Shown piece by piece: positions 16,872-22,725 of a stretch of DNA of 24,000 bases. The DNA is taken from assembly GCA_905480475.1 (NCBI GenBank), contig CAJQQO010000316.1, positions 4,374 to 28,373 of the forward strand. Direction: 5' to 3'. The translations under genes and the position numbers were made by a program. The notes under the pieces were generated by a model, which saw only the letters and a program-made list of their open reading frames with translations, was not told where the DNA came from and ran no database searches. The number at the start of each line of letters is the position of its first letter. The stretch's first letter is position 1. Source of the DNA: an uncultured Pseudomonadales bacterium (GTDB taxonomy: Bacteria > Pseudomonadota > Gammaproteobacteria > Pseudomonadales > UBA7434).

Positions 16872-17900
<1,029 letters not shown>

Positions 17901-17939: not shown

Positions 17940-18653
17940 ATGTCTAGCGTTTTTTCTGACTACCGTGGCGGTAAATTCAAAAAGCTATCAGCGCCAGCAA
18001 TGCTGTTTTTTTTATTATCGCTTTCTATATTTAGTGTTAATCAAGCCATTGCCGAACAAACCGAATGGAAAAGCTCAAAAGAAAAAGACGGTATTAAAAC
18101 ATTCTCGAGAAAAATAGCCGGCTCAAAATACAAAGCCATTAGAGGCGAAACCACCTTAGCAATACCAGTAGCAAAACTGGTTGCAGTGATTAACGATGCA
18201 AAAGCCTGCGTGGAATGGGCGGATTTATGCAAAAAATCCGTAGTGAAAAAACAGGTATCCAATACAGAAGCCTATGTTTACACGCTTAACGATATGCCTT
18301 GGCCAGTTAAAGACCGTGAAGTGACAGCGCATTTAAATTGGAGCAAGAATGAACAAGGTAGTGTGACGATGATTAGTCAGGCTGTTATCGAAATACCCAG
18401 CGAAGACTCGAATAAGAATGTAGAAAAAACCAAAGGGGTTGTCAGAATAGAAACAGCTAATGCGCGCTGGGACTTTACGCCGCTTGGCGACAATAAAACA
18501 TTAACCCAATTTGAAATCCATATGGATCCCAATGGAAAAATACCGGGCTGGTTATTAAATCGCTTGGTATTGGATTCACCCTTTACAACCTTTAAGAGCT
18601 TAGCCACACAAGCGTCAAAAGAAAAATATAATAACGCGACGCTTCCGTTTTAA
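17940..18653 (+). CDS. Secreted START/SRPBCC-superfamily lipid-binding domain protein
   Basis: Signal peptide (…LLSLSIFSVNQAIA/EQ), then a START-like pattern (W…..KDGIK.F.RK..GS.YKA.RGE…………………W……………Y…..MPWPV.DRE………….). AAGGA lies 8 nt upstream of the ATG, and the gene starts 39 nt after hemB. Confidence 0.68.
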   Translation: MSSVFSDYRGGKFKKLSAPAMLFFLLSLSIFSVNQAIAEQTEWKSSKEKDGIKTFSRKIAGSKYKAIRGETTLAIPVAKLVAVINDAKACVEWADLCKKSVVKKQVSNTEAYVYTLNDMPWPVKDREVTAHLNWSKNEQGSVTMISQAVIEIPSEDSNKNVEKTKGVVRIETANARWDFTPLGDNKTLTQFEIHMDPNGKIPGWLLNRLVLDSPFTTFKSLATQASKEKYNNATLPF

Positions 18654-18663
18654 TAGCTAATCG

Positions 18664-20430
18664 TCAAGACTGCCATTTTTGTTTAAAAACCTCAGCGCCC
18701 TCTTTGCCTAGATAACGCTTAAGGTATTTATCAGGTGTTTGCCTGAGATCAACCAGAATCAATCCATCTAGCGAATCGTTAAATACTTTGTTAATTGAAA
18801 AGCAGACAAATTTGCCATTTAACGATAGGTAATGCCGCAACAATGTTGGTAAAGCTTTACCCGGATCGCAGCGCCCAACTAGCTTATTCACGACCGAAAC
18901 ATGATTCAGTGACGCCAGCATTTCATTGGTCCAGATTTTACCCGAGACCTTTAATGGCTCAACGGGTGTAACATCATCAAGAAAACGCTGCTCAGCGCAA
19001 AATGATTCAAGCATACATTCTGAAATTAAGGCGCGCGCCAAATCGGAATGCTCATTAGAAATACTGACCGCACCAAATAGCGTATTGTATTCGGGATTAC
19101 GGGCAATATAACTGCCTATACCACGCCATAATAAATCCAAAGTCTGTGGTAAACGCTGATAATCGGGATGAATAAACGAACGCCCCATTTCCAAAGCTTT
19201 ACCGACTTTTTGCAAGTAATCCTTATCAAAATCAAATAAGGTTTTAGAATACAAAGCGTCTAGACCATGATGCTCAACAATCTCGTCAACCCGGCCAATT
19301 CGATAGCCGCCCACCACTCGAGAAGCGCTTTTATCCCAAATAAATAAATGCAGATAATGTGGATCGAACCGATCTGAATCAACACTATTACCCGTGCCCT
19401 CGCCTGCAGCGCGAAAAGTTATTTCACGGGCGACGCCGATTGCCGCCATCAAACAACCTAGACGCTCAAACGGCGCACAATAAACATCGTATTGTTCAGA
19501 TTCGATATAACGGCAATCGACGATCTCATTTAATGCCAACTGAACATTATCGTTAGATATTTTATCCTCGACACTAATCGGCTCAAATACCAATGATGTT
19601 TGTGCTTTGGCTGGCTGTTGATGATTTTTTAAAAAATCGGTACTCATACGTAGATAATCAGTCACTGCACGATCATCTGACAATTTTAACACTTCACGCG
19701 GGCTAATCGTTTCACCAATAATCAGCTTTAACTCACGGCCCTTTTTATTCGCTAACTCGCGAGGTAATAACAAGGTACGCAATAGCGGATGAATCATTGC
19801 CATTAGGTAAAAAAAGCGACTGTTATAACCATCAACATGAATAGGCAAACAACTGGCATTAGAGCGCTTTAGCAAATTGCCAGCAAGCCGATTCCATGGG
19901 TGATCTTCTACCGACCGCGACTGCATATTGACTGAGGCTACTTTTCCGGCTGGAAATAACAGTAGCGCACCACCACCTTTTAGATGCTGAGAAGCTTCAC
20001 GTATGCCTTTTAAATTTTCACGCGCGGCATTTTTTGACAACACATCAACGCCGATAAAAGTCGATTGCAATTCAGGTATACGTCTGAGTAAATTATTGGT
20101 CAGCACTTTGATATCGGGCCGCAACTCCAATAACAGCTTGGTAATAGCCACACCTTCGAGACCACCCAGTGGATGATTAGCAACAATCAGTAAGGGGCCT
20201 TCTTTAGGCACATTCTCCAAGGCATTAAAACGATCAACGGGTTTAAGCTTCACTTCCAGATGATCTAACACCCCTAAAAGAAAGTCTTCGGTGCTACCAT
20301 TTTTAGGCGCGGACTCGTAACAACGCGATAAAGCGTTCAGCCCTAACACACGCTCGACCAAGCGCGCTAACCAACGTTGGCGTATAGGAAGCTGGAAAGG
20401 TTTTGCTAATTGGGAAACTGAAGCATCCAC
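18664..20430 (-). CDS. Bifunctional acyltransferase, OlsF-like: N-terminal lysophospholipid-acyltransferase (PlsC/LPLAT) domain plus C-terminal OlsB-type GNAT N-acyltransferase domain
   Basis: N-terminal half: IVANHPLGGLEG (H-box variant) and LLLFPAGKV (FP[AE]G motif). C-terminal half: REITFRAAGEGTGNSVDSDRFDPHYLHLFIWDK…VVGGYRIG, the D.D.FD..HL…GtYR pattern of the ornithine-lipid/hemolysin-like GNAT family. The 588-aa length and domain order match OlsF as described for Serratia and Vibrio. The start is GTG with AGGA upstream. Confidence 0.72.
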   Translation of the reverse strand: MDASVSQLAKPFQLPIRQRWLARLVERVLGLNALSRCYESAPKNGSTEDFLLGVLDHLEVKLKPVDRFNALENVPKEGPLLIVANHPLGGLEGVAITKLLLELRPDIKVLTNNLLRRIPELQSTFIGVDVLSKNAARENLKGIREASQHLKGGGALLLFPAGKVASVNMQSRSVEDHPWNRLAGNLLKRSNASCLPIHVDGYNSRFFYLMAMIHPLLRTLLLPRELANKKGRELKLIIGETISPREVLKLSDDRAVTDYLRMSTDFLKNHQQPAKAQTSLVFEPISVEDKISNDNVQLALNEIVDCRYIESEQYDVYCAPFERLGCLMAAIGVAREITFRAAGEGTGNSVDSDRFDPHYLHLFIWDKSASRVVGGYRIGRVDEIVEHHGLDALYSKTLFDFDKDYLQKVGKALEMGRSFIHPDYQRLPQTLDLLWRGIGSYIARNPEYNTLFGAVSISNEHSDLARALISECMLESFCAEQRFLDDVTPVEPLKVSGKIWTNEMLASLNHVSVVNKLVGRCDPGKALPTLLRHYLSLNGKFVCFSINKVFNDSLDGLILVDLRQTPDKYLKRYLGKEGAEVFKQKWQS

Positions 20431-20502
20431 TATGCAATTTCCTGATAAGCGTTGTAGAAAAACATTAATTAACTATCCAAAGTCTAAGAGTTAAACGCAA
20501 TA

Positions 20503-21246
20503 CTAAGCGGCAGCGCGGCGTTGTAACACCTGCAAAGGTCCAGCAACGGTTTCACATGGCGCGCCATCACTATAGGCAATCGATACCTGATCGAGGCTGA
20601 CCTGCACTAAACACTGACTCACCGTTTTGGCATATTCGCGATGCATACATACCGAATCGGCGTATTCTGGCTTACCATTCATCGGCGATAAATCATCATT
20701 AATATGACAGCTATGAAATTGCTGTAAAACATTAATATCGTCTTTATTTTCCAGCGATTCAAAATAATCTCTACGCGTATGGCATACCGACTCGGAATGG
20801 TACGACGAAGATGTGACTGGAATCTCTGGTATTAATCGGCTTAACACTTCGCTATCCCAGCTTAACTGAATAGCAATATGCTGAATAATCACAACATCAA
20901 AGCCGCGGTAATTAGATAAATCCATTGACGTTAATATCTGCTCAGCGGCAGCCGTGGTTTCACAGCCTGCTAAAGCCCTAACAATTTCGCCACGACTTTT
21001 TAAATTATCGGTCTTAGGCTCTTTGGCGACATAATTATTTAGCAAGCAAATAGTTAAGCCAAATTGATTGACCGCAAGCCATGTTCCGCCAGCATCGGTA
21101 TCGGTTGGCGCCAAATAATTAACACCACAATCCGTTTGCATCGGCTGCGGAGGCAAAGCGCGTTTGCGAGTTTTTAATTCATCGCGATTAAAAAATAAAG
21201 AATAACCTTCAGTCTCGGCATTAAATAACCAGGTTAAGGTGCACAT
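20503..21246 (-). CDS. NRDE / TANGO2-family protein (DUF833)
   Basis: It starts MCTLTW… with Cys directly after Met and carries the eponymous NRDE motif (FFNRDELKTRK) at residues 20-23. A strong SD (GGGAGG at 21254-21259) lies 7 nt upstream of the ATG, inside the preceding gene. Confidence 0.8.
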   Translation of the reverse strand: MCTLTWLFNAETEGYSLFFNRDELKTRKRALPPQPMQTDCGVNYLAPTDTDAGGTWLAVNQFGLTICLLNNYVAKEPKTDNLKSRGEIVRALAGCETTAAAEQILTSMDLSNYRGFDVVIIQHIAIQLSWDSEVLSRLIPEIPVTSSSYHSESVCHTRRDYFESLENKDDINVLQQFHSCHINDDLSPMNGKPEYADSVCMHREYAKTVSQCLVQVSLDQVSIAYSDGAPCETVAGPLQVLQRRAAA

Positions 21247-21797
21247 CGGCTAGCCTCCCGATGTCGAAGCGTTGCTGGCGCCACACCAAAATCGTCAGGT
21301 GGCGGCGCAACCTTTAAAGCGCGAAGAATAAAACCCACCAAGGCTTGATGATGAATCGAATGACTATGTAAAAAAGCTAGCTCGCGACCAACACTGGATA
21401 ACTGCGGGTTAGCTTCTGCTACTACTGGCGAATTCGATGCGGCAGAAGCCTCGGCTGCCGAAATAGGCCCGGCATCGAGTTTAGTATCCATTGTGACTGA
21501 AATACTTTGCTCAAAGTTATCGATTGGCAACAAGGCCTCAATCAAACTTTTGATCCGCGCCGAAGCCTCTGAGCGATTAACTTCCAAACGTTGTTCGCGT
21601 GCGCGCTGATCATAATTAATATGCCCCGCCGTATGGCCTAGGACAAATGCCTGATAATGGTCAAGTACATGACGAACATGCGCGCCAATGGAGGAATTGT
21701 ATAAAGCCGGATCGGTATGGGTATATTGGCTATCGTCCAGCGCTTCGATAATTTGCGTAAAGCGCTGTAACAAAAATATGTTTTCTTGGTTTAACAA
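21234..21797 (-). CDS. DinB-superfamily (DinB_2 / YfiT-like) metal-binding four-helix-bundle protein
   Basis: Histidine-triad contexts typical of DinB_2: IGAHVRHVLDHY near the N-terminus and FLHSHSIHHQAL near the C-terminus. The start is TTG, and the 3' end overlaps the NRDE gene by 13 nt. Confidence 0.65.
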   Translation of the reverse strand: MLNQENIFLLQRFTQIIEALDDSQYTHTDPALYNSSIGAHVRHVLDHYQAFVLGHTAGHINYDQRAREQRLEVNRSEASARIKSLIEALLPIDNFEQSISVTMDTKLDAGPISAAEASAASNSPVVAEANPQLSSVGRELAFLHSHSIHHQALVGFILRALKVAPPPDDFGVAPATLRHREASRCAP

Positions 21798-22161
21798 TTT
21801 TCTATCACACTTCTCGTTAGTTTTTTAGTGGAGACAATTGATCATATGAGATTCACCATAATAGCGACCAAATTGACCAGCTACGACCCATTACTTAATG
21901 ATTAATTCCCTAGATTTAAATTTGCTTATCTAAACCATGGGCTAAAACCGTCGTATACGGCTATATGCAGCTACAGGCACCTTGCAGCAGGCTTGCTGGA
22001 CAAATCTCGCAGGCAAGTGGATTTGAGCGTGGTATAGTAAGCCAATTCGCTTGTCACTGCGCCCTAGGCGCTCAATAAACAGGCAATATTACTTATAATA
22101 TGCGCATCAGCCCTCAAACGGCATGCGCAGCAGATTATCCACACAGAGAGAAGCTCAAACA

Positions 22162-22596
22162 ATGAAAAAATACGCCCAATGGTTACTTGTCGGTTTTGTC
22201 GCGTTCGTCTTTATCCAATCACTGTTTTTTAAATTCAGCGGCTCTGAAGAAACCGTTATTATATTTAATACCATTGGCGAATGGATGTTATCAATTGGCT
22301 TGCCAGCCGGCCTTGCCGAAGCCTTTGCCAAGCATGGCGGTAACGTTATAGGTTCAACCGAACTGTTTGCGGTTATTCTACTGCTCATTCCCGCCAGCCG
22401 ATTACTTGGCGCATTGCTGAGCTTAGGCGTGATTAGCGGCGCAATTTTCTTTCATCTATTTACCCCTCTGGGCGTTAACCGCGTTATTGATGCGGCGGGA
22501 AATACCGATGGCGGTGCACTTTTTTATATGGCCTGTGGCGTTTGGATTTGCTCGGCAATATTGATCTGGCTTAACCGCCCACAAAGCCTTCGTTAG
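22162..22596 (+). CDS. DoxX-family integral membrane protein
   Basis: About four hydrophobic segments (WLLVGFVAFVFIQSLFF; STELFAVILLLIP; LGALLSLGVISGAIFFH; ALFYMACGVWICSAILIWL), typical of DoxX in size and pattern. I prefer ATG 22162 (MKKYAQW) over the tracked ATG 22123, which adds a 13-aa polar extension. Confidence 0.65.
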   Translation: MKKYAQWLLVGFVAFVFIQSLFFKFSGSEETVIIFNTIGEWMLSIGLPAGLAEAFAKHGGNVIGSTELFAVILLLIPASRLLGALLSLGVISGAIFFHLFTPLGVNRVIDAAGNTDGGALFYMACGVWICSAILIWLNRPQSLR

Positions 22597-22725
22597 ATAC
22601 GGCGCGATTATATGCACAGCTACGGTATGTGCAATGAGCAGCCAATCATCTAAAGTCCGCCCCTAAAATTTATTTATCGATCTGTCACATTCGCTGTGGC
22701 AGATTGTTTTACTATTAAGGCATTT

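Follow-up and report, generated by a model that had tools for sequence, protein, structure and literature searches.

What do a DinB-like gene and an overlapping TANGO2/NRDE-like gene do together, and which pathway do they serve? The question is raised by a 24,000-nucleotide (nt) stretch of DNA from an uncultured Pseudomonadales bacterium (assembly GCA_905480475.1, contig CAJQQO010000316.1, positions 4,374 to 28,373), hereafter called the window, in which the two genes lie in front of a gene for an OlsF-like aminolipid synthase. There is dispute over what TANGO2 does at the molecular level (haem transfer, binding of acyl-coenzyme A (acyl-CoA) or an unknown hydrolase activity), and its loss leads to severe metabolic disease in humans. 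A preliminary description of the window had regarded the pair as coupled partners and had offered, as speculation, thiol conjugation followed by amide cleavage as their joint chemistry. We lean, on balance, toward the reading that the DinB-NRDE pair handles acyl groups as an accessory module in the metabolism of acyloxyacyl-aminolipids (ornithine-lipid type) and not in thiol detoxification; the chemistry that we infer for it is set out below as a proposal.

The overlapping pair and the OlsF-like gene

Both genes are on the minus strand. The DinB-like gene (21234..21797) encodes 187 amino acids (aa) from a TTG start and belongs to Pfam DinB_2 (PF12867), and the TANGO2/NRDE gene (20503..21246) encodes 247 aa with the N-terminus MCTLTW and belongs to Pfam PF05742. 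They overlap by 13 nt (ATGTGCACCTTAA, 21234..21246, minus strand), such that the NRDE start codon is located within the DinB tail. The DinB open reading frame ends with GAG GCT AGC CGA TGT GCA CCT TAA, and the NRDE frame begins with ATG TGC ACC TTA ACC (MCTLT); the DinB stop codon (21236..21234) is thus made from the NRDE codons Leu4 (TTA) and Thr5 (Acc). A Shine-Dalgarno-like GGGAGG (21254..21259, minus strand) lies within the DinB coding sequence, 7 nt (ctagccg) 5' of the NRDE ATG, and a purine-rich counterpart is present in most relatives of the genus. The overlap, the GGGAGG at this distance and the DinB tail ending in TAA had all been reported in the preliminary description and were confirmed here, as were its family assignments, since both Pfam matches exceeded their cut-offs and the Foldseek results agreed. 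That description had given neither the strand nor the TTG start.

The TTG at 21797 is the sole start codon available 5' of the conserved DinB N-terminal block, and the first possible DinB start is TTG or GTG in most genus relatives too. The NRDE start codon, by comparison, is ATG in 62 of the 75 wider loci with the same gene order that are described below. Such a DinB start codon beside the ATG of NRDE may set a low DinB:NRDE ratio, or may cause NRDE translation to rely on coupling. A promoter and terminator scan of positions 18400-22700 was uninformative, with sites no more numerous than in shuffled sequence, and no terminator was found in that scan between the DinB, NRDE and OlsF-like genes. 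The DinB and NRDE frames are real, translationally coupled genes.

The OlsF-like gene (18664..20430, minus strand; 588 aa) begins 72 nt downstream of NRDE and encodes a bifunctional aminolipid synthase with the OlsF architecture, namely, an N-terminal O-acyltransferase domain (Acyltransf_2, PF19576, residues 69-270) and a C-terminal OlsB-type GNAT domain (PF13444, residues 335-435). Its best NCBIfam match was OlsF, NF052615, with 384.5 bits, which is below the equivalog cut-off of 620; a homologue labelled Vibrio cholerae, from a similar cluster, was also under this cut-off (427 bits). Over its full length, the synthase of the window was 40% identical to the VCA0646-type protein, a proven enzyme, with 581 positions aligned. 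Furthermore, the OlsF-like gene was the sole PF13444 gene found in the window's genome, which is 88% complete.

Within the genus, the NRDE gene was present in 13 of 20 relatives, with DinB directly upstream in all 13, and the junctions were overlaps of 13, 1 or 0 nt or gaps of 1-2 nt. The synteny DinB-NRDE-OlsF was kept in all 11 genus loci examined. The 13 genomes with the DinB-NRDE pair were the same 13 that carried the OlsF-like gene, without a single mixed genome, and none of the three genes was found in the remaining seven, four of which are 91-97% complete. The three genes are therefore gained and lost together within the genus, and the pair opens a unit of three genes (DinB-like, TANGO2/NRDE-like and OlsF-like). 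In one genus relative (548765-550565), the OlsF-like gene was split into an O-acyltransferase of 297 aa and a GNAT protein of 318 aa, either as a natural split or by a frameshift.

The same DinB-NRDE arrangement was observed in two further families of the order. In one family of the order, the O-acyltransferase domain is joined to the C-terminal end of NRDE and GNAT is a separate gene; the fusion is a shift of the domain boundary. An NRDE gene of this subfamily beside DinB was absent from eight OlsF-bearing genomes of the same order. We know of no DinB or NRDE partners reported for the described OlsF/OlsBA systems (Serratia, Sinorhizobium and VC0489), and our literature search returned no paper linking TANGO2, NRDE or DUF833 with aminolipids or OlsF.

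Conservation, neighbours and fusions across phyla

A pattern scan with the NRDE alignment over all representative genomes gave 80 loci of the NRDE subfamily, which span at least nine phyla when taxon names are taken from the record labels. These labels include Pseudomonadales/Porticoccus, Arenicella, Vibrionaceae, Latescibacterota, Acidobacteriota and Calditrichia, and also Gemmatimonadota, Spirochaetes, Chloroflexota, Opitutaceae/Verrucomicrobia, Planctomycetota and Desulfobacterales. Two contigs, labelled Polaribacter sp. and Cryomorphaceae, carried Arenicella-type flanks beside the cluster (RsmE in the former; peptidyl-prolyl isomerase-FabV-RsmJ-RsmE in the latter). Both are probably mis-binned gammaproteobacterial DNA, and Bacteroidota were left out of the phylum count for this reason.

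Local hidden Markov model (HMM) searches placed a DinB-subfamily gene immediately 5' of NRDE in 75 of the 80 loci and 1 kb downstream of it in one; in the other four, these searches did not find the DinB subfamily. The two genes overlapped by 13 nt in 46 of the 75 loci, by 1 nt in nine and by 22 nt in two, and were separated by a gap of 0-18 nt in the remaining 18. The 13-nt overlap is assembled from the conserved NRDE codons Met-Cys-Thr-Leu-Thr, and the DinB tail 'CA(P/R/H/Q)' is therefore a by-product of the overlap. The tight junction exceeds chance. The preliminary description had named a pairing limited to one lineage, and a loss of the overlap in homologues, as findings that would speak against coupled partners; neither holds, and the 75 loci from at least nine phyla extend its claim well beyond the lineage.

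We then considered what accompanies the pair. Of the 80 loci, 63 contained genes for OlsB-, OlsA- or OlsF-like proteins, and with few exceptions these genes had the same strand. In other phyla, the pair adjoins OlsB-like and OlsA-like genes and LpxO/OlsC-like hydroxylase genes. The typical Arenicella order is DinB, NRDE, OlsB-like, OlsA-like, YHS, a 146-aa protein and an LpxO/OlsC-like hydroxylase. Among the 17 loci that lack Ols-like genes, six break off before 900 nt downstream, and ten have a gene for an ATP-grasp-like protein, a VTT (DedA-type) protein or both, which in some of these ten is fused to an alpha/beta-hydrolase domain. Homologues of the ATP-grasp-like, VTT and YHS proteins were found in 24, 20 and 40 of the 80 loci, respectively.

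The frequency of the ATP-grasp-like and VTT genes suggests an alternative in which the pair, together with these two proteins, adds, exchanges or trims a second amino compound on the lipid head group, such that NRDE would be a head-group transamidase or amidase and would not act on the fatty chain. The gene for the ATP-dependent transfer of taurine to ornithine lipid is still unknown (PMC12971839), and DinB homologues without NRDE directly adjoin ATP-grasp-like genes, as described below. However, neither an ATP-grasp-like nor a VTT gene is present in the cluster of the window, the single ATP-grasp homologue detected in the window's genome sits on another contig, and the fusions of the pair involve the O-acyltransferase and not the ligase. 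We therefore consider such head-group chemistry unlikely.

These fusions are of two kinds. NRDE was fused to Acyltransf_2 in 18 protein clusters, including those of Salinispirillum, Natronospirillum, Alkalimonas and Spirochaetaceae, with identities to the query down to 33% and with NRDE at the N-terminal side in every case; 17 of the 18 begin with (M/V)CTL, and in the other one the called start is 11 residues further upstream. Similarly, two clusters contained an OlsA-like lyso-ornithine-lipid O-acyltransferase at the N-terminal side and DinB at the C-terminal side. Each partner is thus independently tied, in the manner of a Rosetta stone, to an enzyme of O-acylation. A DinB::NRDE fusion was not found among the best 150 DinB relatives in a search limited to that order of domains, the order NRDE::DinB being outside it. 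Every arrangement keeps Cys2 of NRDE at a free N-terminus, which may be the reason that the two genes overlap instead of being fused in the order DinB::NRDE.

Families and folds of the two proteins

The NRDE protein matched TANGO2 (PF05742) with 49.3 bits against a cut-off of 22.6, residues 1-168 covering profile positions 1-179 of 257. Its AlphaFold2 model, with a predicted local distance difference test (pLDDT) score of 94.5, showed the alpha-beta-beta-alpha fold of the N-terminal nucleophile (Ntn) type. The top Foldseek match was human TANGO2 (8SV7, 9BWA; E 1e-10), and the highest TM-scores were obtained with acyl-CoA:isopenicillin N acyltransferase (TMq 0.68-0.71). Next came bile salt hydrolases and penicillin V acylase, which are hydrolases of fatty or steroid amides. 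Across the 80 NRDE sequences, Cys2, R21-D22-E23, R27, D49, N60, N70, R85 and R203 were invariant, and N20 of the FFNRDE motif was nearly so.

The window protein and human TANGO2 (PF05742; PDB 8SV7, 9BWA) have in common the Pfam family, the NRDE motif, Cys2 and the Ntn fold. However, their identity in the structural alignment was 14%, the C-terminal third of the window protein lies outside the Pfam match and has conserved motifs of its own (SVCMHR and TVS), and the bacterial protein is tied to DinB and an aminolipid synthase, for which no eukaryotic equivalent is known. Human TANGO2 has been reported to bind acyl-CoA via the NRDE motif (PMC11867700) and to possess a Cys2 Ntn-like active site (PMC12359130), properties that are known for the human protein only. 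With hydrophobic acyl amides or acyl-CoA as substrates, Cys-Ntn enzymes pass through acyl-Cys intermediates (PMC12359130). The fold and the N-terminal Cys are also common to the Cys-Ntn acyl enzymes, namely, isopenicillin N acyltransferase, bile salt hydrolase/penicillin V acylase and NAAA. These enzymes belong to other Pfam families and, judged from sequence, the nucleophile of the window protein would be bared by loss of Met1 and not by internal autoproteolysis.

We also surveyed 300 sampled Gammaproteobacteria, of which 76 carried a PF05742 gene. Most of these genes scored 170-270 bits, whereas those beside a DinB-subfamily gene scored 43-56 bits, indicating that the DinB-linked NRDE proteins are a divergent TANGO2 subfamily. 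No DinB-subfamily gene was found beside the higher-scoring TANGO2 genes of this sample.

This divergence bears on a role in haem trafficking, such as that reported for HtpA (SO0126) of Shewanella oneidensis, a bacterial member of the TANGO2 family whose gene has a metal transporter neighbour (PMC10470608). HtpA is in the same Pfam family as the window protein and has a different gene context; it is presumably a member of the higher-scoring group, whereas the window protein is in the divergent subfamily at 49 bits. A hemB gene lies ~2.6 kb from the pair and is nearby throughout the genus, which would be meaningful for such a role. However, the 80 wider loci do not have hemB as a conserved neighbour, and neither the metal transporter beside HtpA nor the lack of DinB beside the higher-scoring TANGO2 genes matches the window arrangement. 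The link to haem via hemB was rejected, since the adjacency is confined to the genus, and haem trafficking is the least credible of the alternatives that we considered.

The DinB protein matched DinB_2 (PF12867) with 29.5 bits against a cut-off of 24.8, and with 25.7 bits in the six-frame genome search; NCBIfam contained no model for it or for the NRDE protein. Its AlphaFold2 model (pLDDT 92.4) matched only DinB/YfiT structures of the four-helix-bundle fold, with probability 1.00. The best Foldseek matches were YizA, BH3987, YfiT, DR0053 and mycothiol S-transferase, with TMq of 0.50-0.59 and identities of 11-16%, and several DinB/YfiT entries in the PDB carry the depositors' label 'putative metal-dependent hydrolase'. 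A search of the DinB profile against PDB sequences gave chance kinase matches only. Across 78 DinB sequences, R42, H43, R65, E72, R138, E139, H146, H149 and H150 were invariant, and H43 with H146-x3-H150 fits the canonical DinB metal-triad pattern. The four-helix bundle and the His...His-x3-His arrangement are common to the DinB/YfiT metalloenzymes (YfiT, mycothiol S-transferase Rv0443, BstA and the EgtB N-domain), from which the window subfamily differs by its additional invariant Arg, Glu and His residues, by an insertion at residues ~100-130, and by its partners, which are NRDE, ATP-grasp-like proteins and acyltransferases and not products of thiol-pathway genes. The subfamily comprises ~2020 clusters (50% identity) at E<=1e-30, and nearly all of the best 150 of these are stand-alone proteins of 165-260 aa.

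Family analogies were the ground on which the preliminary description had pictured a DinB thiol S-transferase whose conjugate is trimmed by an NRDE amidase. Such a pair would be analogous to LmbV/LmbE or EgtB/EgtC. The DinB fold is indeed that of the mycothiol and bacillithiol S-transferases, and NRDE has an Ntn amidase-like fold. However, the likeness to thiol transferases is at the level of the fold (mycothiol S-transferase, TMq 0.50 and 13% identity; BstA, E 2.6), and the window protein has no close relative among the DinB-fold thiol S-transferases (MST, BstA and LmbV). No thiol-pathway or electrophile-detoxification gene was a conserved neighbour in the 80 loci; the neighbours are genes for OlsF-, OlsB- and OlsA-type acyltransferases, and context, co-inheritance and fusions all point to acyltransferases. 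The analogy to EgtB/EgtC similarly failed, since the 187-aa DinB protein contains neither an FGE-sulfatase domain nor any other second Pfam domain, and its partner belongs to the TANGO2 family and not to the class-II amidotransferases. The S-conjugation and amidase mechanism was thus not borne out, and we regard it as very improbable. Gene context supports neither the thiol nor the haem explanation.

The DinB subfamily was present in 10 of the 300 sampled Gammaproteobacteria and adjoined NRDE in five. Four of these five loci showed OlsF- or GNAT-type genes, and the fifth ended at a contig edge. In four of the five loci without NRDE, DinB was beside ATP-grasp-like genes of the family found upstream in Vibrio, two of them also with YHS and MFS-like genes. 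These four clusters are tight, with one or two ATP-grasp-like genes each; neither OlsF nor NRDE was found within the stretches examined, and they may represent a separate, undescribed module. A confinement of the DinB subfamily to the company of NRDE was rejected on these counts. The NRDE subfamily is nearly always with DinB, whereas the DinB subfamily has a broader range of partners, each with a link to amide or acyl chemistry.

The Vibrio cholerae operon and the proposed acyl chemistry

Laboratories already work with a counterpart of the window cluster. V. cholerae has a second OlsF, VCA0646, whose gene is the last of a putative four-gene operon, vca0649-0646 (Vences-Guzman et al., PMC12186959). 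We mapped this operon by the published primer sites, which were exact in one genome except for one start-codon mismatch in one primer; the VCA0646 primers had no match in an assembly labelled V. cholerae that carries an NRDE gene. The primer sites showed that vca0649 is a DinB-subfamily gene (E 9e-38) and that vca0646 is the OlsF gene. The gene after vca0649 is NRDE (E 9e-56), with the junction TAATG and thus a 1-nt overlap, and is followed by a gene for a secreted YHS protein and then by OlsF; the two middle genes are taken to be vca0648 (NRDE) and vca0647 (YHS). Identities between the window and V. cholerae proteins were 31% for DinB, 32% for NRDE and 40% for OlsF. The gene order DinB, NRDE, OlsF is the same in both, although V. 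cholerae has the additional YHS gene between NRDE and OlsF, and VTT and ATP-grasp-like genes upstream, which the window locus lacks. All four genes are activated together by HapR (bioRxiv 10.1101/2024.09.23.614608). The two Vibrio papers leave VCA0647-0649 without a function or family, and the preprint calls the function of all four unknown. VCA0646 is required for ornithine lipid at low salinity and is induced there (PMC12186959), and the acyl donors of OlsF are undetermined (PMC12971839).

The proposed mechanism starts from the N-terminus of NRDE. A Met that precedes Cys is cleaved by methionine aminopeptidase. Removal of Met1 by this enzyme would expose Cys2 as an N-terminal nucleophile, onto which a fatty acyl group could be loaded in thioester linkage to give an acyl-enzyme. 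The donor might be an acyl-CoA or acyl-acyl carrier protein (acyl-ACP) thioester, or an ester- or amide-bound chain of lyso-ornithine lipid or ornithine lipid. The predicted three-His metal site of DinB, with its conserved Arg and Glu residues, may bind or activate the co-substrate, either the thiol of CoA or ACP or the amino-acid head group. Together, DinB and NRDE would remodel or edit the acyl chains that are handled by the lyso-lipid O-acyltransferase domain. A bolder proposal, which we offer tentatively and hold to be clearly less probable than the accessory role as such, is that this bacterial TANGO2 subfamily is a true enzyme, in which a Cys2 acyl-enzyme shuttles fatty acyl groups between acyl-CoA/ACP and amino-acid lipids in company with the DinB metalloprotein and the lyso-lipid O-acyltransferase.

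Several points weigh against an accessory acyl-handling role. VCA0646 alone makes ornithine lipid in Escherichia coli (PMC12186959), indicating that the DinB-NRDE pair is not needed for basal ornithine-lipid synthesis. Both vca0648 and vca0649 were dispensable for colony cell death, the only phenotype tested (10.1101/2024.09.23.614608), and the contribution of the pair could be subtle. The DinB subfamily was without an adjacent NRDE gene in 5 of its 10 carrier genomes, and related genomes are non-independent samples. Gene adjacency and fusion constitute a functional link and not a reaction. Furthermore, vca0646 is served by a salt-responsive promoter of its own, whereas that of vca0649 is weak and is not induced by salt (PMC12186959), a difference that would also fit an antagonistic, degradative role of the pair.

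Such a role could take the form of a two-step deacylase, in which DinB is a metal-dependent esterase that removes the ester-linked 'piggy-back' chain and NRDE, as a Cys-Ntn amidase, then splits lyso-ornithine lipid at the N-acyl bond, thereby freeing ornithine and turning over the lipid when conditions change. Besides the separate control of the promoter upstream of vca0649, this alternative is favored by the NRDE fold, which is nearest to lipid and steroid amide hydrolases (bile salt hydrolase and penicillin V acylase) and to an amidohydrolase/acyltransferase, and by the metal-dependent hydrolase labels of the DinB/YfiT structures; two degradative proteins would also mirror the two synthetic domains of OlsF. 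However, the fusions of NRDE and DinB to a synthetic O-acyltransferase and the tight linkage to the synthase are less expected for antagonists. To our knowledge, no DinB-fold esterase has been characterised, which also counts against it. We consider this deacylase doubtful, although less so than the head-group chemistry discussed above.

These findings have consequences for both protein families. Three lines of evidence, namely, operon structure, all-or-none co-inheritance and natural fusions, connect a bacterial TANGO2 paralogue with a defined lipid pathway. They also point toward an accessory step of ornithine-lipid metabolism that has so far gone undescribed, and they place a large orphan DinB subfamily (~2000 clusters at 50% identity) in a pathway for the first time. 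The pathway lends itself to genetics and the V. cholerae operon is at hand; the question of the substrate of TANGO2-type proteins becomes a direct experiment in lipidomics and enzymology. If the Cys2 acyl-enzyme is true, a TANGO2-family protein would for the first time have a defined biochemical reaction, the case for an acyl-CoA/lipid role of human TANGO2 would be strengthened relative to that for a haem chaperone, and ornithine-lipid metabolism would gain an undescribed remodelling step.

As for the surroundings of the unit, a small hydrophobic protein of 157 aa without a Pfam match is encoded divergently from the DinB gene (22123..22596, plus strand). Its homologues were found in 16 of the 80 NRDE loci, including those labelled Opitutaceae, Gemmatimonadales and Vibrionaceae, and it adjoins DinB in four genus loci; it may also belong to the cluster. 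The window cluster is a minimal form, consisting of this protein with DinB, NRDE and OlsF. On the other side, a gene for a START-domain protein (17940-18653, plus strand) is convergent with the OlsF-like gene, the two being 10 nt apart. Only 4 of the 11 genus loci examined keep it, and it is therefore probably outside the conserved unit. The hemB-like frame (16872-17900, plus strand) was split in the list of open reading frames into parts of 81 aa and 247 aa, suggesting that this essential gene of haem synthesis has an in-frame stop or a problem with its start codon. The single ATP-grasp-like homologue of the Vibrio cluster protein that was found in the window's genome (30% identity) is located at 19024-19740 of another contig, and the genome also contains three YHS-domain genes, all on other contigs.

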